From Octopus sinensis (taxonomy: Eukaryota): a stretch of 64,000 nucleotides of DNA. Numbering within the stretch: position 1 is the first letter of the stretch; every line of letters starts with the position of its first letter. The stretch covers positions 46,314,001 through 46,378,000 of the forward strand of contig NC_043007.1 in assembly GCF_006345805.1 (NCBI RefSeq). The letters are read 5' to 3'. Both the position numbers and the translations under genes were made by a program. Positions 3,455 through 64,000 of the stretch are shown here, piece after piece. A model generated the notes under the pieces. That model was not told where the DNA came from. It searched no databases and worked only from the letters and a program-made list of their open reading frames with translations.

Positions 3455-4466
3455 ACCTGGAGAAGTAAAATTGAAAAAGAGATTGAATTTATGAGAAGGG
3501 AAATATCAATATTAAATGAACTAACATGTGGAAATGATATAAGATCCAGAACAGGAAGAAAGATGAAGAGAAAATTTGGATCCTCACCAAGAGAAGAACT
3601 GATATCAATGAAAGAAACGCTGAAACAAAAAGTTCAAGCAAAAGCCCAAAGAATACGAACATTTGAGAAGAGAAACAAGTTTTACAAGCAAAATAAGCTG
3701 TTCACATCCAATGCCAAAAAATTCTACAGAGAAATAGGGAAGGAGAAAGTAACCGTTAAAGACCCCCCTCCCATGGAAGAAGTTCAAAACTTTTGGAAAA
3801 TGATTTGGAGTGACAAGAAGACGTACAACATAAATGCAGACTGGATTATACAAACAGAAGGATCCTACCAAAATTTACAACAACAATGGGAAGACATCAC
3901 AATAGCAGACCTAAGAAAGGCACTCACGAAGGCCCATAATTGGAAATCCCCCGGTAAAGATAGGGTGCCGAATTTCTGGCTCGCATCGCTCCCATGCGCA
4001 TACCGTAAGCTAGTTCAGCTGCTCAATGGAATTATGAGAGACCCAAAGAAAACACCTGAATGGTTAGCAAGTGGTATTACTTACCTACTCCCAAAGAATA
4101 ACGAAACCAACCTTCCAAAAACTATAGGCCTATAATCTGTCTATCCACCACGTATAAAATCCTAACATGTATCCAGGCGGAGAAAACATATGCATTCATG
4201 GAGAAGAACGATATTTTCCCCATCGAACAAAAAGGGTGCCGCCGAGGCTCATACGGATGCAAAGATCAACTGCTAATTAATCGTATGATCCTTGAGAACT
4301 GTCACAACAAGCGCAGAAATCCCTAAAATTAACGAATTAGTGAGTTTAGTTTAATGGTCTACCAATGTATACTATGAGTTTCTTTGCCCTAGGAGTCGGG
4401 AAGACACTCGGCAAGAAATGGAAGCAAATTTGAAAGAAGAGGAAAAAAAAAAAAAAAAAAAAAAAA

Positions 4467-33899: not shown

Positions 33900-35450
33900 A
33901 AAAATAATGCAACGAAGTTGATTACCCACTTATGCAGTTTGAAGTCAAACTACAGACCACTTGCAATTAAGTGGAGAATGTTGGAGAAATCTGAGCCATA
34001 TGTTAATGGATCTAAGAAATACAACTTACACGTAAGAGAAAAATCTCGTATTCGTCTTTGATTCAGAAGAAAGGGAGAAAGTGTTAAAGAAACTGAGAGC
34101 ATGGTTAGTGCCATGGATGTGGGAGAGGAGGGGAGGAAAGCCACTAGGTGTCAAAGATGCGGTCGAGGCAGTTACAGGCGGGGACGATGGGGCGGCCAGT
34201 GATGATGGGCTTGTGGATTTGGGGAAGAAAGTAAATGGTGGGGGTGCGTGGAGTGCGGACAATGAATTTGGAGGTGATGGGAGACGGGAGATGTGGGTAT
34301 GGATAGTGGAGGACACAGTTTGTTGGTAGTTTGGCGTGGGGCTGGAGGTCAGAGGGCAATAGTAGGAGGTGTCTTGAAGTTGTAGAGGTCTGGGCGTTAC
34401 ACCACTACGGCTCCACCCTTGTCGGCCGATTTTATGATAATATTTTTGTGGAGTTAGTGACATCGCAGGGCTGAGAGTTCAGTCGAGGAGAGGCGAAAGT
34501 GTCGGGGACGCCTGCGAATGTCAAACCGGTCCACAACACATTGGTAGATTCTTGGTAAAATGATCAACTGCTTGGGACTGACCAGGAGCTGGCGTCCAGT
34601 GGGTTGCTCGGTGAAGCAGTCCTCTTCATTAGATGTAAGTGGTGTACTGTGGAATAGTGCATATAGCCTGAAGCGGCGCACAGAGCTATGAATGTCCGCA
34701 CGGGTCTGAAGTTCGTTACTGGATGGAATGAGGTGTATGAAGCGCAGACCTTTACTTACAAAAGAGTGCTTGTAAGTAAAGATCAGGATGAATGATAACA
34801 ACAGACTGACGTGAGGACAGGGTTGATGAGTTACATGTAGGCGGGATGGTGGGGGCAATGGGAGGCTGGGAGGAAAATGAAGAATAAGTGCGTGGGGTGT
34901 GGGAGTAACGAAAAGTAGGATGTGGATGAGGGGGGAGTATATCTGGGAGGAATGGACATGAGGAAGGGTGGGTGTAGTGACATCGGGTGTGAGGTGTTGG
35001 TTGGGGATGTGGAATGAAGGAGTGAGTGGAGTTTATGTTGTTTAGTGCGAGCGAGGAACTATGAAAACTATGATTTAAATGGATTATGAAGCGTAGAGTG
35101 GAATGTGCAGCAGGATGTGAAACACAGGAGAAAAATGTAGAATAATTGAGAGGGATGAGGCAGTCGAGGGTGTGCATTTTAGAGATATTAGAACGAATGG
35201 TGGCACGCATAATGCGATAAGAAGTAGTACGGAGCATGGGTAGGATGGAAGAAGCAGAGTGGTAAGTGAGGTGGAAATTGAAGTCGGACAGAAGTTATTG
35301 GAATTAAAGTTGCAAAGTAGAACATCGGCAATTCTGTCATAAATCATCTCAAGCCAGTAGGTGAGGGCTAACACTGTGAAAATGGTACTGGCTACAAGTT
35401 CCAAGAGGGTTACATAATGGAGAGAAATGCGAGTCTGGAGTTGTTTTGTT
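33900..35450 (-). mobile_element. Penelope-like element, decayed N-terminal/RT-start region
   Basis: KGLRFI...VRRFRLYALFH; IKSADKGGAVV (ATAAAATCGGCCGACAAGGGTGGAGCC on minus); PRTPTIYFLPQIHKPIITGRPIVPACNC. Confidence 0.85.
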
Positions 35451-36630: not shown

Positions 36631-37290
36631 GAGCTAGCAGAATCATTATCACGCCGGGCGAAAGGTTTAGTGGGATTTCGTTTGCTGTTACGTTCTGAGT
36701 TCAAATTCCACCGAGGTGACTTTGCCTTTCACCCTTTCGGGGTCAATAAATTAAGTACCAGTTACGCACTCTGGTCGATGTAATCGACTTAATCCCTTTG
36801 TCTGTACTTGTTTATCCCCTCTATGCTTAGCCCCTTGTGGGCAATAAAAAATATATATATATACATATATGCAGGACGGCGAGCTGGCAGAATTATTAGC
36901 ACGCAGGGCGAAATGCGTAGCCGTATTTCCTCTGCCGTTACGTTCTAAGTCCAAATTCCGCCGAGGTCGACTTTGCCTTTCATCATTTCGGGGTCGATTA
37001 AATAAGTACCAGTTACGCACTGGAGTCGATATAATCGACTTAATCCGTTTGTCTGTCCTTGGTTGTCCTCTCTGTGTTTAGCCCCTTGTGGGTAGTAAAT
37101 AAATAGGTACTTCGTCTGCCATTAAGTTCTGAGTTCAAATTCCGCCGAGGTCGACTTTGCCTTTCATACTTTCGGGGTCGATTAAATAAGTACCAGTTAA
37201 GCACTGTGGTCGATGTAATCAACTTAATCCCTTTGTCTGCCTTCGTTTGTCCCCTCTATGTTTATACTCTTGTGGGAGCATTAAAGAAAT
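36631..37290 (+). mobile_element. Cluster of three tandem SINE copies (one partial)
   Basis: Repeated TTCTGAGTTCAAATTCCGCCGAGGTCGACTTTGCCTTTCAT...TAAGTACCAGTT...TTTAGCCCCTTGTGG. Confidence 0.85.
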
Positions 37291-38399: not shown

Positions 38400-39735
38400 A
38401 TGTACGTGGACACAATATAAAAAGCAAGTTCTATCTTAGGGGGACCAAAAGCCTAACAAAGATTTAGCCATATATGGACCTGATACAAAAAGTTCAGTTC
38501 TTGAATTTAGACATGTAGCGGGGTCTAAGCTGCTTTTCCAGATGAGCCGTCTTTCCATATCACAAAGACTGCACGTTTCACTACCGTTGTTGTTAGGATT
38601 ACACTTGGCAAAGATCTTCCAATGGATGTTGTAACTGACAACTTTATCTTTTAAGGACCATATATAACTGGGTAATTTTGTCGTTTTTCTTTTATCCCAG
38701 TGCTCAAGGTGTAATTGTTGAACCTGATCTTAAAATTCCCCTTTGTAAGACCCGCATATTTCTTTGACGAAACTGTGTCCTTAGTGGTCGTAGTGTTTAC
38801 GGTGACTTCATAAATGATGATCTCAGGCATGCAAGCTCCATTTAGTGGGGCACAAATTTTTATTCTTGCATGAACAGCTGGTTTCATTTTCTTGTTTTTG
38901 TGTGTTGTGTGCGATTATATATTTAAAATTATTAGTTGAGCTAAAACTAATTGTTAGGTTATGCCTGCTGAAGAGATTTCTATAATTATAATTGATTGGG
39001 AAATGCCTATCTGTAAGTGATAAGAAATATTTACCTATATGAAAGGTCACTTCGGGAAAGTAAGGGGTGTGAACCAGATAGTTTTCCTATTCCTATGTTT
39101 CCTTTTATTTATTATTGGACAAGTGATAAGTGTATAGGTTATTTCCTCGCTAAATCCATTATCTTTTAGAGCATTATTATATACTGGGGCAATGTCTCTA
39201 TCGGAGGAAAGGCTACAAATTCTTTTCTAATGATTTTAACTAAATTTTTAAACACTGGGGGCATGGCCGTAACCCAAATTAATATAACTACGTCTATCGT
39301 TGGGCTTCCTATAAGGTTTCTAAATATCCTTATTTATATTTACGGATACATCCAAGAAATTGACAACCGTCAGGTTGCTAAGACCGAAAATTTTCATCAT
39401 TTCGATAATGTCCTTCCTAAACCGATCTTGTGCTAGTCCATTGCTATTTGTGTTTAAAGCTAGGGCATCATCTTTGTAAATGGAGAAATATACGTCAGGA
39501 AAAGTCTTGTCCAACTTATCGAATAGGAATAGTCCAATGAGTTCGCATATGTCTGTTCCATCATATGACCCCATACTCACATGAAAAGCACCCTCTGTAT
39601 CGGTAGTCTTGGCCAACTCTGCGTTCTCACTGAAGAGTAAAGTCTTTCTAGCATGGAAAATTATGTCCATATCTTCTGTATTAATTTTGTAAAATTCGCT
39701 TGAGAAGGCGATGGCTTTATCCGGCGAAGGCAAGT
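38400..39735 (-). mobile_element. Penelope-like element, RT core to GIY-YIG endonuclease (decayed)
   Basis: HARKTLLF...FHVSMGSYDGTDICELIGL...YKDDAL...VNFLDV; then CSC...CP, IIYEVTV...KYAGLTKGNFKIRFNN (GIY-YIG). Confidence 0.92.
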
Positions 39736-40141
39736 GAGCATATGCATATATAGCAGGTACGTATTTAGACGTGTATTTGAATATAATTGTGCACGTATAG
39801 TTATGTGTATGTGTATGAACGCGTGTGTGTGCGGATATGTATATGTGTACATGTATGGCGACTTATATAGGCGTATGTGTTGGTGTGCATGTATGTGTTT
39901 CACGCGAGTGTGAGTGCGCATAGGCATATAGGCACATTACGTGGGTGTGCGTGCGCGCGTGTATATCTATGTACATGCGCACATACGCGATTTCTGTGAG
40001 CATTTTTACTTTTTACTTTCTCCACTTCGCTTTCTTTATTTAACGGTCATTCTCATAACATTTTTGTCTTAATAACAGTCAATCACATATCAATTTACCT
40101 TTGTTTAACGGTCATTTTCATAGCATTTTTGAATGCCTTGT

Positions 40142-49711: not shown

Positions 49712-50328
49712 CAAGTATAATCATTGCAGGGAAAGAAAAGATTCATATAACTTTTATGTATATATGTATGTGCATGTGTATATTTATAATTGTTATTCTG
49801 TCATTACTTTACTGAAACCGATGTCATTCTCAGGAATCTGATGCTGATTCTTTGTTACTTTGCTTAGGATAACCGACAACTGAATACAATGAGTTTTCTT
49901 TAAAATTCCAGAAGAAAGTAGAAAACACGGAAGTTTACAAATTTTTTCTTAATAGAACATTTACACATCTGTTTTAATACATCTAAAGCACTAATACGAA
50001 ATATGTTCGTACACATTGATTTCCTGACGTAAATGTCCAAGCAACCTATTCGTACAATTACTTGTATGTATAAATATTTTGACAGGCTTAGAATATCACA
50101 TTTTATTTCCAATTTCCTTTCGGGAGAATACAAAATCATGATGGCATTTACTAGAGCATTTCTCCAACAAACAATATCGTAAATCATATACAAGTAAATA
50201 TATATATATATATATATATACATAAATGCCTCACACTAGGAGGGACAGAGTCATTACTACCAAAATTATACTAATCATACCCAAATGCAGTTTTTCAAAG
50301 CAAAGCAAGACATTTAAAAATGAATTAT

Positions 50329-50384
50329 GTTCTGTATCACCGTGATTTCACATACAACTTGCGTCTAATGATCGTCAGCAGAAC
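50329..50384 (-). ncRNA. Type I hammerhead ribozyme motif, monomer 1
   Basis: Minus strand GTTCTG-CTGACGA-TCATTAGAC(GCAA)GTTGTATGT-GAAA-TCA(CGG)TGA-TA-CAGAAC. Confidence 0.85.
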
Positions 50385-50803
50385 TGATTCTGAATACATC
50401 ATAAATAAACTAACCTTACGTAGCGAAGACGAACAGACAACTCTGCTCTCCGGCCAAGCACATGGAATGTCTATAAATCATATATCCGGTAAATGGCGGG
50501 CTTTTTACGAACTGCATGTCGGGTAATGAAAAGTATTTCGGAATAAGTTTAACAATTAAGGATAATCTCTTAATAAGGGATCTTAACAAGAAATTATCAG
50601 GTAGCTAGCGTGAAAACCTCATAAAAGAAAAGAATCCGAAAATAATTTTTTCTTCTGAACAAATTAATTATATCTATATTGTATAGAGGGCATTATTACA
50701 CATAAATGCCTCACACTAGGAGGGACAGAGTCATTACTACCAAAATTATACTAATCATACCCAAATGCAGTTTTTCAAAGCAAGACATTTAAAAATGAAT
50801 TAT

Positions 50804-50859
50804 GTTCTGTATCACCGTGATTTCACATACAACTTGCGTCTAATGATCGTCAGCAGAAC
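50804..50859 (-). ncRNA. Type I hammerhead ribozyme motif, monomer 2 (same motif in monomers 3-9; altered in monomer 10)
   Basis: Same 56-nt motif; predicted AUA cleavage between 50810 and 50809. Confidence 0.85.
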
Positions 50860-53800
50860 TGATTCTGAATACATCATAAATAAACTAACCTTACGTAGCG
50901 AAGACGAACAGACAACTGCTCTCTCCGGCCAAGCACATGGAATGTTTATAAATCATATATCCGGTAAATGGCGGGCTTTTTACGAACTGCATGTCGGGTA
51001 ATGAAAAGTATTTCGGAATAAGTTTAACAATTAAGGATAATCTCTTAATAAGGGATCTTAACAAGAAATTATCAGGTAGCTAGCGTGAAAACCTCATAAA
51101 AGAAAAGAATCCGAAAATAATTTTTTTCTTCTGAACAAATTAATTATATCTATATTGTATAGAGGGCATTATTACATAAATGCCTCACACTAGGAGGGAC
51201 AGAGTCATTACTACCAAAATTATACTAATCATACCCAAATGCAGTTTTTCAAAGCAAGACATTTAAAAATGAATTATGTTCTGTATCACCGTGATTTCAC
51301 ATACAACTTGCGTCTAATGATCGTCAGCAGAACTGATTCTGAATACATCATAAATAAACTAACCTTACGTAGCGAAGACGAACAGACAACTGCTCTCCGG
51401 CCAAGCACATGGAATGTTTATAAATCATATATCCGGTAAATGGCGGGCTTTTTACGAACTGCATGTCGGGTAATGAAAAGTATTTCGGAATAAGTTTAAC
51501 AATTAAGGATAATCTCTTAATAAGGGATCTTAACAAGAAATTATCAGGTAGCTAGCGTGAAAACCTCATAAAAGAAAAGAATCCGAAAATAATTTTTTCT
51601 TCTGAACAAATTAATTATATCTATATTGTATAGAGGGCATTATTACACATAAATGCCTCACACTAGGAGGGACAGAGTCATTACTACCAAAATTATACTA
51701 ATCATACCCAAATGCAGTTTTTCAAAGCAAGACATTTAAAAATGAATTATGTTCTGTATCACCGTGATTTCACATACAACTTGCGTCTAATGATCGTCAG
51801 CAGAACTGATTCTGAATACATCATAAATAAACTAACCTTACGTAGCGAAGACGAACAGACAACTGCTCTCTCCGGCCAAGCACATGGAATGTTATAAATC
51901 ATATATCCGGTAAATGGCGGGCTTTTTACGAACTGCATGTCGGGTAATGAAAAGTATTTCGGAATAAGTTTAACAATTAAGGATAATCTCTTAATAAGGG
52001 ATCTTAACAAGAAATTATCAGGTAGCTAGCGTGAAAACCTCATAAAAGAAAAGAATCCGAAAATAATTTTTTCTTCTGAACAAATTAATTATATCTATAT
52101 TGTATAGAGGGCATTATTACACATAAATGCCTCACACTAGGAGGGACAGAGTCATTACTACCAAAATTATACTAATCATACCCAAATGCAGTTTTTCAAA
52201 GCAAGACATTTAAAAATGAATTATGTTCTGTATCACCGTGATTTCACATACAACTTGCGTCTAATGATCGTCAGCAGAACTGATTCTGAATACATCATAA
52301 ATAAACTAACCTTACGTAGCGAAGACGAACAGACAACTGCTCTCTCCGGCCAAGCACATGGAATGTTTATAAATCATATATCCGGTAAATGGCGGGCTTT
52401 TTACGAACTGCATGTCGGGTAATGAAAAGTATTCGGAATAAGTTTAACAATTAAGGATAATCTCTTAATAAGGGATCTTAACAAGAAATTATCGGGTAGC
52501 TAGCGTGAAAACCTCATAAAAGAAAAGAATCCGAAAATAATTTTTTTCTTTGAACAAATTAATTATATCTATATTGTATATAGAGGGCATTATTACACAT
52601 AAATGCCTCACACTAGGAGGGACGGAGTCATTACTACCAAAATTATACTAATCATACCCAAATGCAGTTTTTCAAAGCAAGACATTTAAAAATGAATTAT
52701 GTTCTGTATCACCGTGATTTCACATACAACTTGCGTCTAATGATCGTCAGCAGAACTGATTCTGAATACATCATAAATAAACTAACCTTACGTAGCGAAG
52801 ACGAACAGACAACTGCTCTCTCCGGCCAAGCACATGGAATGTTTATAAATCATATATCCGGTAAATGCGGGGCTTTTTACGAACTGCATGTCGGGTAATG
52901 AAAAGTATTTCGGAATAAGTTTAACAATTAAGGAATAATCTTAATAAGGGATCTTAACAAGAAATTATCAGGTAGCTAGCGTGAAAACCTCATAAAAGAA
53001 AAGAATCCGAAAATAATTTTTTTCTTCTGAACAAATTAATTATATCTATATTGTATAGAGGGCATTATTACACATAAATGCCTCACACTAGGAGGGACAG
53101 AGTCATTACTACCAAAATTATACTAATCATACCCAAATGCAGTTTTTCAAAGCAAGACATTTAAAAATGAATTATGTTCTGTATCACCGTGATTTCACAT
53201 ACAACTTGCGTCTAATGATCGTCAGCAGAACTGATTCTGAATACATCATAAATAAACTAACCTTACGTAGCGAAGACGAACAGACAACTGCTCTCTCCGG
53301 CCAAGCACATGGAATGTTATAAATCATATATCCGGTAAATGGCGGGCTTTTTACGAACTGCATGTCGGGTAATGAAAAGTATTTCGGAATAAGTTTAACA
53401 ATTAAGGATAATCTCTTAATAAGGATCTTAACAAGAAATTATCAGGTAGCTAGCGTGAAAACCTCATAAAAGAAAAGAATCCGAAAATAATAATTTTTTT
53501 TTCTGAACAAATTAATTATATCTATATTGTATAGAGGGCATTATTACACATAAATGCCTCACACTAGGAGGGACAGAGTCATTACTACCAAAATTATACT
53601 AATCATACCCAAATGCAGTTTTTCAAAGCAAGACATTTAAAAATGAATTATGTTCTGTATCACCGTGATTTCACATACAACTTGCGTCTAATGATCGTCA
53701 GCAGAACTGATTCTGAATACATCATAAATAAACTAACCTTACGTAGCGAAGACGACAAAGACAACCTCTTCCGGCCAAGCACATGGAATGTTTATAAATC

Positions 53801-54726
53801 ATATATCCGGTAAATGGCGGGCTTTTTACGAACTGCATGTCGGGTAATGAAAAGTATTTCGGAATAAGTTAACAATTAAGGATAATCTCTTAATAAGGGA
53901 TCTTAACAAGAAATTATCAGGTAGCTAGCGTGAAAACCTCATAAAAGAAAAGAATCCGAAAATAATTTTTTCTTCTGAACAAATTAATTATATCTATTTG
54001 TATAGAGGGCATTATTACACATAAATGCCTCACACTAGGAGGGACAGAGTCATTACTACCAAAATTATACTAATCATACCCAAATGCAGTTTTTCAAAGC
54101 AAGACATTTAAAAATGAATTATGTTCTGTATCACCGTGATTTCACATACAACTTGCGTCTAATGATCGTCAGCAGAACTGATTCTGAATACATCATAAAT
54201 AAACTAACCTTACGTAGCGAAGACGAACAGACAACTGCTCTCTCCGGCCAAGCACATGGAATGTCATAAATCATATATCCGGTAAATGGCGGGCTTTTTA
54301 CGAACTGCATGTCGGGTAATGAAAAGTATTTCGGAATAGTTTTAACAATTAAGGATAATCTCTTAATAAGGGATCTTAACAAGAAATTATCAGGTAGCTA
54401 GCGTGAAAACCTCATAAAAGAAAAGAATCCGAAAATAATTTTTTTTTCTCTGAACAAATTAATATATCTATATTGTATAGAGGGCATTATTACACATAAA
54501 TGCCTCACACTAGGAGGGACAGAGTCATTACTACCAAAATTATACTAATCATACCCAAATGCAGTTTTTCAAAGCAAGACATTTAAAAATGAATTATGTA
54601 TTTGTCTGTATACCGTGATTTCACATACAACTTGCGTCTAATGATCGTCAGCAGAACTGATTCTGAATACATCATAATAAACTAACCTTACGTAGCGAAG
54701 ACGAACAGACAACTGCTCTCTCCGGC

Positions 54727-55354
54727 ATGTAATAATGCCCTCTATACAATATAGATATAATTAATTTGTCAGAAGAAAAAAATTATTTTCGGATTCTTTT
54801 CTTTTATGAGGTTTTCACGCTAGCTACCTGATAATTTCTTGTTAAGATCCCTTATTAAGAGATTATCCTTAATTGTTAAACTTATTCCGAAAATTTTCAT
54901 TACCGACATGCAGTTCGTAAAAAGCCGCCATTTACCGGATATATGATTTATAGACATTCCATGTGCTTGGCCGGAGAGAGCAGTTGTCTGTTCGTCTTCG
55001 CTACGTAAGGTTAGTTTATTTATGATGTATTCAGAATCAGTTCTGCTGACGATCATTAGACGCAAGTTGTATGTGAAATCACGGTGATACAGAACATAAT
55101 TCATTTTTAAATGTCTTGCTTTGAAAAACTGCATTTGGGATGATTAGTATAATTTTGGTAGTAATGACTCTGTCCCTCCTAGTGTGGGCATTTATGTGTA
55201 ATAATGCCCTCTATACAATATAGATATAATTAATTTGTTCAGAAGAAAAAAATTATTTTCGGATTCTTTTCTTTTATGAGGTTTTCACGCTAGCTACCTG
55301 ATAATTTCTTGTTAAGATCCTTATTAAGAGATTATCCTTAATTGTTAAACTTAT
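54727..55354 (+). repeat. Inverted block of ~1.3 monomers closing the array
   Basis: ATGTAATAATGCCCTCTATACAA... is the reverse complement of the monomer end; the block runs into (TA)n at ~55354. Confidence 0.95.
55040..55095 (+). ncRNA. Type I hammerhead ribozyme motif in the inverted monomer
   Basis: Stem I GTTCTG(55040-45)/CAGAAC(55090-95), CTGACGA(55046-52), GAAA(55075-78), stem III ATCA/TGAT, predicted cleavage after A55089. Stem I extends GAAT(55034-37)/ATTC(55099-102) across an internal loop. Confidence 0.88.
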
Positions 55355-55527
55355 ATATATATATAATATATATATATATATCTATATATACATGCATACA
55401 TACATACATATATATATACATACAAACACATATATATGTATATATATATATATAATATATATATATTATATATATATAATATATATATATAAATACATAC
55501 ATATATATATACGTAATACATACAAAC

Positions 55528-55598
<71 letters not shown>

Positions 55599-55871
55599 AA
55601 TATATATATTGCATCGCCTCTTATCGTAAATATTTCTCGAATATTTATATTGCAGTATATTAGCAACTGAAAATTTAGGAAATGACGATTTGACATAAGA
55701 ATAGTTGACTGTACAACATGTATTCGTGTGTGTCTCTGTGTGTGCGTGCGCGCCATGATTGTGTGTGTATAAAGTAGAGGCTCATATATATGTATATATA
55801 ATATACATATATATGTATATATATATATATATTATATATATATATACATATTTATATATATATATTACATA

Positions 55872-62194: not shown

Positions 62195-64000
62195 AAGATA
62201 TAAGATCTGCTCTCAGGAGGTCAAGCAAATGGAAGTCTCCAGGAAAGGATAAAATTCGTAACTTCTGGTTGAATGACTTCCCAGAGAGCCATGAACTGCT
62301 ATCAGAATTTTACAATGATGTTTTGCAACACCCTAGTAGGATGCCTCCTTGGCTAGTTAATGGGTTAAGATTCCTGCTTCCAAAAAGTGAAGGAACAAAT
62401 GAACCAAAAAACTATAGACTCATAACAACTATGTATAAAATGCTAACATCTGTCCTGACGGAATATACCTATAGCTTTTTAATCGACAGCAGCATATGAA
62501 CAGAAAGGATGTAAACGTGGATCCTATGGTTGTAAAGATCAACTACTCATCAATAATATGATCTTAGAAGACTGTCACAAACAACACAAAACCTTATCAA
62601 TAGCCTGGATAGAATGTAAAAAGGCTTTTGATAGCCTACCACATAGCTGGATAAAGAAATGCCTGGAAATGTATAAAATAGCGCCTACTCTGCGAGACTT
62701 CTTGTCTGTAAGTATGAGATCATGGAGAACCACACTAACTTTGAACAGTGACAATGAATCTCTAAATGCTGGTGATGTAAAAATTTCATGTGGCATTTTC
62801 CAGGGTGACTCACTATCACCACTCCTCTTTTGTTTACCCTTGATACCTCTCTCAAAATTGCTCAATGACGCGCAGTACGGATATAAAATGTTTGATAAAA
62901 ATATAAATCATTTCATTTACATGGATGATTTAAAGCTCTTTGCAAAGAATGACCAACAACTCAAGGGCTTACTAGCGATTGTCAAAAAATTCAGTGATGG
63001 CATCAGAATGCAATTTGGCCTCGATAAATGTGCAAAAGCTACCTGTATCAAAAGAAAAATGACGGAAATATCTAATGTTAACCCTGACCAGCAGAATGTT
63101 ATAACAAATTAGACCCAGCGGAGAGCTACAAGTACCTAGGGGTAATTGAACGGGACGGAATAAGGCATTCAGTGTTGAAGGGAAGGATCAGGAGAGAATG
63201 TTATCGCAGAGTAAGAGCAATACTCAAGACAGTGCTGAATGCGAGGACCGAAGCGGTCAATGCTTTAGCCATACCAGTCGTGACTTACAGTTTCAATATC
63301 GTTAACTGGTCCATTACTGAAATATGTAATCTTGACAGAAAAATACAAAAACTGTTGACAATGCATAGAATGTACCACCCTAAGGCAGATACAGAACGAC
63401 TTTATCTGCCAAGAAAAGAGGGAGGCCGTGGACTTTTACAACTGGCAATAACAATGAAGATTGCTACAATTGGCCTAGACACCTACCTGAAAAACTCTGA
63501 GGACTGGGTGTTAAAACTTGTCTCAAAACATGAAAACAAGAAAGCATCATATTCAGTAACAAAACAGGCAAAGAAATATCTAAGTGAATTCCGAATACAA
63601 CCAATTTCGGAATTAGACATACAAGAAACAAGTACAGAAAAAGCTAAGCGCATGAAAACCCGTGCTAAATATGCGGCCTTAGATATTCTGAATGATAAAT
63701 GGCAAGAAAAACCTCTCTATGGCAAATACCCAAAGAGAGCGAATAATGCAGATGTTGACAAAGCCCTGACCCATCAATAGCTAATTGCCTCTGGCTTAAA
63801 ATCTGAAACAGAAGGGTTTATCATAGCAGCTCAAGATCAATGCCTACCAACAAGAAACTACCAGGCCAACATATTAAAGATCAGAAGCAGTCCAACGTGT
63901 CGTGTATGCAAGAAACAAAATGAAACCATTGACCATGTGGTCTCCAAGTGCAGTCTTCTAGCGCCTACAGAGTATCTCAACAGGCATGATAAAGCTGCAC
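62195..64000 (+). mobile_element. R4/Dong-type LINE, 5'-truncated, runs off the window
   Basis: [82 protein letters not shown]. Confidence 0.95.

Follow-up and report, generated by a model that had tools for sequence, protein, structure and literature searches.

A young family of two-armed hammerhead ribozyme arrays in Octopus sinensis with the insertion signature of Penelope-like elements

A 64,000-nucleotide (nt) stretch of the Octopus sinensis genome (contig NC_043007.1, positions 46,314,001 to 46,378,000), here called the window, was analysed around a tandem array with hammerhead ribozyme motifs. Tandem Repeats Finder (TRF) placed the array at 50220-54726 with a period of 474, 9.5 copies and 97% matches, consistent with the monomers of about 475 bp described in an earlier sequence-only reading. 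The array was directly followed by an inverted copy of 1.3 units at 54728-55354. The whole element occupied 50220-55354, and both ends adjoined (TA)n. The sequence-only reading had given the span as 50221-55354; the array and the inverted copy were real, while the start was corrected to 50220 and the inverted part to 54728-55354. That reading had passed over the inverted copy as half of the element, together with the two-site priming signature of Penelope-like elements (PLEs) in (TA)n. The element is a single insertion of a young dispersed family, and the inverted copy is a structural half of it, placed head-to-head with the long arm.

Positions in the unit are given as q, counted in nucleotides downstream of the predicted cut; the reference is a 476-nt family consensus, for which 230 units were combined. 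The long arm (50220-54726, minus strand) consisted of 9.5 head-to-tail units in hammerhead sense, with its 5' start at q357 (54726) and its 3' end at q110 (50220), a minor priming site; q141 was used at most loci. The short inverted arm (54728-55354, plus strand) ran from q110 to the fixed q268 site at its 3' end and met the long arm head-to-head at 54727. Its start was the same position where the long arm ended. An arm stopping at the priming site of the other arm was found in 5/49 such cases, with 2.6 expected (p 0.11). The outer ends lay between a left (TA)n target remnant (50198-50219) and a right (TA)n microsatellite (55355-55609), where any target-site duplication would be masked.

Both strands of the whole 64 kb were scanned with a hammerhead motif pattern. 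The scan found nine intact type I hammerheads on the minus strand, at 50329-50384 (predicted cut between 50335 and 50334), 50804-50859, 51278-51333, 51751-51806, 52225-52280, 52701-52756, 53176-53231, 53652-53707 and 54123-54178. A damaged tenth motif lay at 54605-54655 (minus strand), its stem I/III region altered by a genuine change or an assembly error. The inverted arm carried one plus-strand copy at 55040-55095 (predicted cut after 55089). The type I core of CUGANGA, GAAA and UH with three stems was present, and the array hammerheads had a 6-bp stem I, CUGACGA, a stem II capped by GCAA, GAAA, stem III AUCA-CGG-UGAU and the cleavage triplet AUA. The motif had been claimed earlier for monomers 1-9 and the inverted copy, with monomer 10 altered, and the core and 6-bp stem I had been called canonical and perfect; the two-strand scan agreed on all these points. 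The claimed 4-bp extension of stem I (GAAU/AUUC) was present in the predicted fold. The only other match in the window, 26299-26248, had a stem I of only 4 bp and looked like chance.

Rfam gave no hammerhead match in the window and none in 10 related loci, relatives with a G-C pair at the base of stem II being among those missed. The type I search proposed in the sequence-only reading thus found all motifs as a pattern scan and none with the Rfam model. In the array hammerhead, U.U occupied the position of the G10.1-C11.1 pair. A related pattern that excluded the window family was searched genome-wide and occurred at 715 places, compared with 12 for a reversed control. Among 35 distinct motifs, stem I, which lies outside the search pattern, was paired in 161/175 cells, compared with 23-52% when slid, and each stem I column held several pair types. 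Stem II pairs 2-4 were formed in 33, 31 and 34 of the 35. The pattern itself prescribed the core and stem III, which carry no weight, and the 35 motifs are related, so these figures are not a probability. Because of the excess over the reversed control and the pairing of stem I outside the pattern, the motif is not a chance occurrence. As to the covariation check proposed earlier, diverged sister families retain the core, and their stems covary. U.U stood at the base of stem II in 24/35 motifs and G-C in 8/35, which makes U.U a normal variant. The earlier caveat about U.U carries little weight, since an axolotl hammerhead with U.U cleaves (PMC7229834).

Within the family, heritable changes of the ribozyme were found at N7, in the GNRA loop, at stem II mismatches and at the stem I junction. 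The internal U.U of stem II was turned into a pair in either direction, at 9 and 37 loci. None of 48 variable sites fell in the 12 core positions, where about 1.2 were expected, a result that is not significant alone. Beyond the family, at least six distinct stem sets were seen among 30 loci (L169-L198) taken from the 715 places. Many hammerheads of other families ended in (TA)n 100-270 nt downstream of the cut. The genome carries a large set of predicted type I hammerhead families, and Rfam missed those in the 10 loci scanned.

The longest ATG-initiated open reading frame (ORF) in the unit encoded 33 aa in sense and 78 aa in antisense, indicating that the unit is non-coding. Its GC content was about 0.33. 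The array contained no match to a PLE protein, and the unit had no ORF with reverse transcriptase (RT) and GIY-YIG domains. One cut-to-cut monomer of 473 nt (51284-51756, minus strand), the predicted linear or circular RNA, folded at -122.8 kcal/mol in sense, compared with -92 kcal/mol in antisense. The linear form had a z of -5.0, which was reached by 0/100 shuffles, and the circular form a z of -5.6 (40 shuffles). The linear fold placed the 5' end in stem I, close to the 3' end. A stretch at 51444-51470 (minus strand, about q290-315), conserved between the window family and the sister family, resembles a B box of RNA polymerase III and may be an internal promoter.

Contigs of four sequencing runs, three of them only guessed to be RNA and one of unclear kind, covered 30, 26, 30 and 30 of 30 monomer bins. 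Some bridged the cut site; a circle, an uncleaved multimer and DNA look alike in such contigs. Monomer words also occurred in runs of four organisms from seven studies, and contigs from three matched at 90-100%. The retrozyme family appears to extend to related organisms.

The monomer was used for a DNA search of the genome. A total of 328 matches were obtained in 33 of 1131 candidates scored; those listed were 97-100% identical and lay on many chromosomes. Exact counts gave 806 hammerhead 20-mers and 946 copies of a 32-mer genome-wide. These data supported the earlier proposal of a young retrozyme family with one hammerhead per unit, and the genome-wide monomer search proposed with it matched many dispersed loci. 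Ends at q268 followed by (TA)n had 243 exact matches. Including the window, 88 loci were analysed; 60 came from the first places of the q268 list, and the others from lists of DNA and motif matches, in which long arrays are favoured.

The 88 loci contained 76 head-to-head arm pairs. Six pairs were set aside: five ran into the edge of the retrieved sequence, which makes one of them read q268/q268, and one was an inner pair in an interrupted locus. The 70 complete pairs comprised 66 of q268 with q141, two of q268 with q110 (one being the window) and two of q268 with another site; none had two like ends. In loci not chosen by their ends, 21/21 complete pairs were unlike, one duplicated insertion being counted twice. 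The inner 5' ends of the arms varied freely. The outer ends met a TA run in 154/162 cases, including 68/72 q141 ends, which were unselected for TA. The tail between q141 and q268 was 127 nt, and each arm used one site, strictly split. This strict split suggests one RNA held by a dimer.

Two fixed unlike ends in (TA)n and an inverted 5'-truncated arm therefore point to PLE-type priming. Three features of non-autonomous PLEs were found. A 5'-truncated copy lay in inverted orientation, attached through its 5' end; the 3' ends fell at two fixed sites, one of the two ends bearing a tail; and the target was a microsatellite or AT-rich. Together, the fixed unlike 3' ends, the inverted truncated copy and the (TA)n target are read as the PLE signature of two internal priming sites. 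The features of non-LTR (non-long terminal repeat) retrozymes were found as well, namely head-to-tail units with one type I hammerhead, a non-coding sequence of low GC, a dispersed family and a self-paired monomer. By its sequence features, the element is a young dispersed non-coding non-LTR retrozyme that would work like a non-autonomous PLE. It is highly probable that it is a PLE-mobilised retrozyme.

The stretch q84-141 (example at 51616-51673, minus strand) had two short predicted hairpins ending at the q141 priming site. They are common to the sister families and may be an RT-binding signal. The tail of about 127 nt (example at 51490-51615, minus strand) contained two further predicted hairpins; when these are looped out, the fold of the window family allows the 127 nt to be shortened to about 35 nt. 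The tail stretch of the sister family folded no better than shuffles (z -0.12), and shortening of the tail by hairpins is speculation.

An older sister family (L111-L122, L146-L148) with 227 exact 24-mers was about 60-75% alike to the unit, and many of the 715 pattern matches fell in it. It had a hammerhead at the homologous place and a similar two-ended inverted layout in (TA)n, and its copies were mostly sub-monomer or partial-tandem. In the window family, one two-armed insertion occurred twice, 783 bp apart, with equal unit numbers of 3.6 and 5.1 (L033/L034, C14:8941100-8950100), which is either a segmental duplication or an assembly artefact. At L070:3620-5320, a foreign insertion of 1.7 kb broke one arm.

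The similarity of units was compared within and between loci. The median number of substitutions was 1 within an arm, 2 between arms and 10 between loci (556, 278 and 25,501 pairs). All locus-private fixed substitutions (15/15) were present in both arms and in nearly every copy. No variant was fixed in one arm only, among the 35 loci that had two arms, one of at least two units. Seven of the 15 private changes were A-to-G in hammerhead sense, 4/4 in L047 and 3/3 in L044, in every unit of both arms. Each of these two haplotypes occurred at one locus only genome-wide, with five exact matches each. A third array, of which one arm was fetched, shared one A-to-G site and had a second fixed A-to-G. 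ADAR enzymes convert A to I, which is read as A-to-G. The simplest reading of the clustered changes is A-to-I editing of a single RNA unit before reverse transcription. Together, the private changes shared by both arms and the clustered A-to-G haplotypes point to a single edited monomer RNA that served as template many times, probably through rolling-circle reverse transcription.

The position where the arms start was related to insertion length. Both arms started at the same template position (mirror arms) in 22/30 insertions shorter than 700 nt, compared with 1/37 longer ones; 5.8/67 were expected. Short mirror arms and long unlike arms are read as run-off from a broken RNA and copying of an endless template, respectively. 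Fold-back self-copying was rejected as a general mechanism, the second arm being longer than the q268 arm in 22/67 pairs; it may explain short mirror insertions. L1-type twin priming on linear RNA was also rejected as a general mechanism, since mirror arms copy the same bases twice.

To find candidate enzymes, PLE loci were sought with a GIY-YIG profile; there were 5029 candidates, and 147 of the 150 that were scored matched. RT and GIY-YIG matches were both present in four ORFs of 775-883 aa; a fifth ORF, with an internal deletion, matched GIY-YIG only. The copies of one PLE family were 98-99% identical, had a CX4CxxC linker and ended in (TA)n. This linker is of the Neptune/Nematis type (PMC8557442). 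Predicted intact Neptune-type PLEs are present in the genome, with young intact ORFs at L138:3032-5374, L139-L141 and L144:2245-4569. The scan found no canonical hammerhead in the L138 family, which had an optional tail of about 35 nt. Another PLE family, that of L144, had a minimal hammerhead whose stem II is closed by U.U; U4 was C in two of three copies. The 1.5 kb to either side of 30 sister-family hammerheads contained no match to a PLE protein. PLE ends or fragments were also seen in or near TA tracts that hold family insertions (L040 left flank; L082:3358-4585), consistent with a shared target.

The best explanation of the whole, held with moderate confidence, is a non-autonomous non-LTR retrozyme moved by a Penelope-like RT/GIY-YIG protein, with arrays copied from a circle. 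Arrays would first be transcribed, cut by their hammerheads to monomers of about 476 nt and closed by a host ligase, as in the known family. A PLE protein would then cut both strands of (TA)n and prime two complementary DNAs (cDNAs) internally on one RNA, at q268 and at q141 or q110. For this step the fixed unlike ends in (TA)n were observed, and the enzyme is the presumed agent. On a broken RNA, both cDNAs would run off the same 5' end and give short mirror-image arms; on an intact circle, each would make several rounds and leave arms whose 5' ends are unrelated and which hold as many as about 12 identical units. The arm patterns were observed, and the circle is the putative template. Finally, the two cDNA ends would be joined head-to-head. 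It is somewhat more likely than not that long arrays were made at insertion from one circular monomer. The most specific form of this proposal is evenly poised: each long insertion would be the remnant of a single circular RNA, at times A-to-I edited, on which a dimeric Penelope-like RT started from two fixed sites separated by 127 nt, with repeated rounds of copying in either direction of the target.

Several results weigh against this explanation. The hammerhead fold was predicted at -9.0 kcal/mol, compared with -10.6 kcal/mol for a misfold, with a probability of 0.003, and the hammerhead region folded no better than shuffles (z +0.92). In published experiments, 8/9 predicted retrozyme dimers did not cleave (bioRxiv 10.64898/2026.07.22.740005), and unprocessed RNA was the main PLE substrate, with cleavage dispensable (PMC11167929). 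Sequence shared with the monomer was found in 0 of 43 PLE loci drawn from the 147 GIY-YIG matches, the comparison giving just two weak AT-rich matches (E 0.01-0.03). The A-to-G case rests on three loci; a genome-wide count of one 28-nt stretch gave 730 when A or G was allowed and 726 when T or C was allowed; and G-to-A was also skewed, 8 versus 1 C-to-T. Six of the seven edited adenines lay in predicted helices, yet so did about 68% of all adenines. Arm 5' ends at the cut were 16/150 in q1-20 with 6.3 expected, but a similar clump was present at q41-60, and neither odd junctions nor complex changes showed an excess at the cut site over other parts of the unit. A short partial tandem expanding later would also spread edits through both arms.

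The comparative evidence for the ribozyme is stronger than its own marginal fold. Stem III cannot fold by itself, and its self-dimerisation was predicted at -11.9 kcal/mol, which fits the dimer model of hammerhead action (PMC4209133). The ribozyme is likely to be active in vivo, probably aided by dimer formation or a protein.

The alternative that survives best, which we consider unlikely, is two-site PLE priming on a linear uncleaved multimer, with short partial tandems growing later by slippage or unequal exchange and the ribozyme weak or incidental. It draws on the marginal fold, on the dispensability of cleavage for PLEs in vitro (PMC11167929) and on local amplification, the model of bioRxiv 10.64898/2026.07.22.740005. 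Mirror pairs ran across the cut site in 10/23 cases, and the short arms of the edited loci L047 and L044 were just 1.1 and 0.7 units, so one edited unit copied into both cDNAs and expanded later would fit. The start of the short arm in the window, at the end site of the long arm, resembles twin priming. The absence of any variant fixed in one arm only argues against later growth, as do arrays of 10-15 units with 0-1 singleton substitutions (C6m, L074, L035); singleton differences are partly assembly errors and unusable for dating arrays. Both arms were often multi-unit, with correlated lengths (Spearman 0.59, n 48), and would need simultaneous very fast expansion. Mirror phasing, common in short insertions, was almost absent in long ones.

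Improbable is a second alternative, in which the ribozyme cuts without forming a covalent circle and the RT jumps repeatedly from the 5' end of a linear monomer to its own 3' end held by stem I. One template per insertion is explained equally well in this way, the predicted linear fold has the two ends close together, and a few irregular junctions lay near the cut (window unit 10, L048, L063, L072, L101); the great majority of junctions were exact, and complex changes showed no enrichment at the cut site. A fossil hammerhead in a plain DNA-level satellite, or in a foldback or rolling-circle DNA element, agrees with the missing Rfam recognition and with the non-significant absence of core changes, but is very improbable: insertions are dispersed and number in the hundreds, their 3' ends are fixed while the extent of 5' truncation varies, folding is strand-specific, the A-to-G changes are clustered and strand-specific, and stems covary in families about 60-75% alike.

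Other elements in the window were also recorded. Decayed PLE-like ORF fragments lay at 34382-34765 and 39320-39862 (minus strand); one matched a PLE protein, and the other has RT motifs that look Naiad-like. Broken non-LTR retrotransposon RT fragments lay at 3455-4135 and 62483-63780 (plus strand), and tandem copies resembling a short interspersed element (SINE) at 36631-37276. No transfer RNA gene was found in the window.

The literature searched, which covered few subscription papers, yielded no account of a cephalopod retrozyme, of retrozyme insertions with two arms, or of edited copies taken as evidence that circles were copied. Hammerheads were already known in cephalopods, with 235 Rfam hits in giant squid (PMC6962438). 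In the literature consulted, the spread of animal retrozymes is still a matter of hypothesis: the machinery of PLEs is called a 'strong candidate', and arrays may come from rolling-circle copying or from local amplification. The octopus offers a young family with hundreds of clean-ended insertions and intact PLE ORFs in the same genome. With its 476-nt template, its two predicted priming sites, (TA)n as target and a set of candidate enzymes, it opens the retrozyme life cycle and the origin of the inverted and tail structures of PLEs to direct testing. If true, the rolling-circle reading would be genomic evidence for twin-primed rolling-circle reverse transcription of a ribozyme-made circle, and also evidence that retrozymes carry the results of host RNA editing back into the germline. 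The analysis also brought out a large set of predicted hammerheads that escape Rfam.

Metazoan non-LTR retrozymes of coral, mussel and axolotl have units of 170-400 nt, with cleavage and circles demonstrated, and tandem cDNA made from circles by a PLE RT has been proposed for them (PMC7229834). The octopus family shares their tandem non-coding units, one type I hammerhead each, low GC and self-paired monomer. Axolotl HHR_Amex2 has the same U.U at the base of stem II as the octopus array, and it cleaves (PMC7229834). The octopus family differs in its 476-nt unit, and its cleavage and circles are predictions from sequence. The text of PMC7229834 that was consulted contains no insertion in (TA)n built of two head-to-head arms with two fixed priming sites. 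Li, Clavereau and Pollet (2026) proposed retrozymes as non-autonomous PLEs, with sizes of 51-972 bp and no mollusc sampled (bioRxiv 10.64898/2026.07.22.740005). The large size claimed in the sequence-only reading thus holds against the 170-400 nt of PMC7229834 and falls inside the range of the preprint. PLE co-occurrence and dispersed monomers with multimers are common to both data sets. The preprint ties retrozymes to PLEs through homology with PLE terminal repeats and explains arrays by local amplification. In the octopus, no homologous PLE occurred among the 43 loci; the tie is the insertion signature, and the observations tend to favour arrays formed at the time of insertion.

Non-autonomous Chlamys PLEs such as MRC1 are likewise non-coding PLE passengers with multicopy head-to-tail insertions; these passengers resemble their autonomous partner at the 3' ends, and most Chlamys elements have no canonical hammerhead (PMC8557442). 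PLEs in general leave inverted 5'-truncated copies with a tail at one end and a (TA)n bias (PMC8557442). They cut both strands of AT-rich DNA and then start reverse transcription at two internal sites, which explains the tail (PMC11167929). The octopus element, unlike Poseidon, Neptune and Naiad, has no ORF, and its tail is 127 nt, compared with 30-40 nt. Each of its arms keeps strictly to its own site, whereas no strand difference was seen in the in vitro PLE study (PMC11167929). Like Poseidon of Anolis (PMC11167929) and Neptune and Naiad (PMC8557442), the octopus family combines two internal priming sites, a tail at one end, an inverted 5'-truncated copy, an AT-rich or (TA)n target and a hammerhead upstream of the priming sites.

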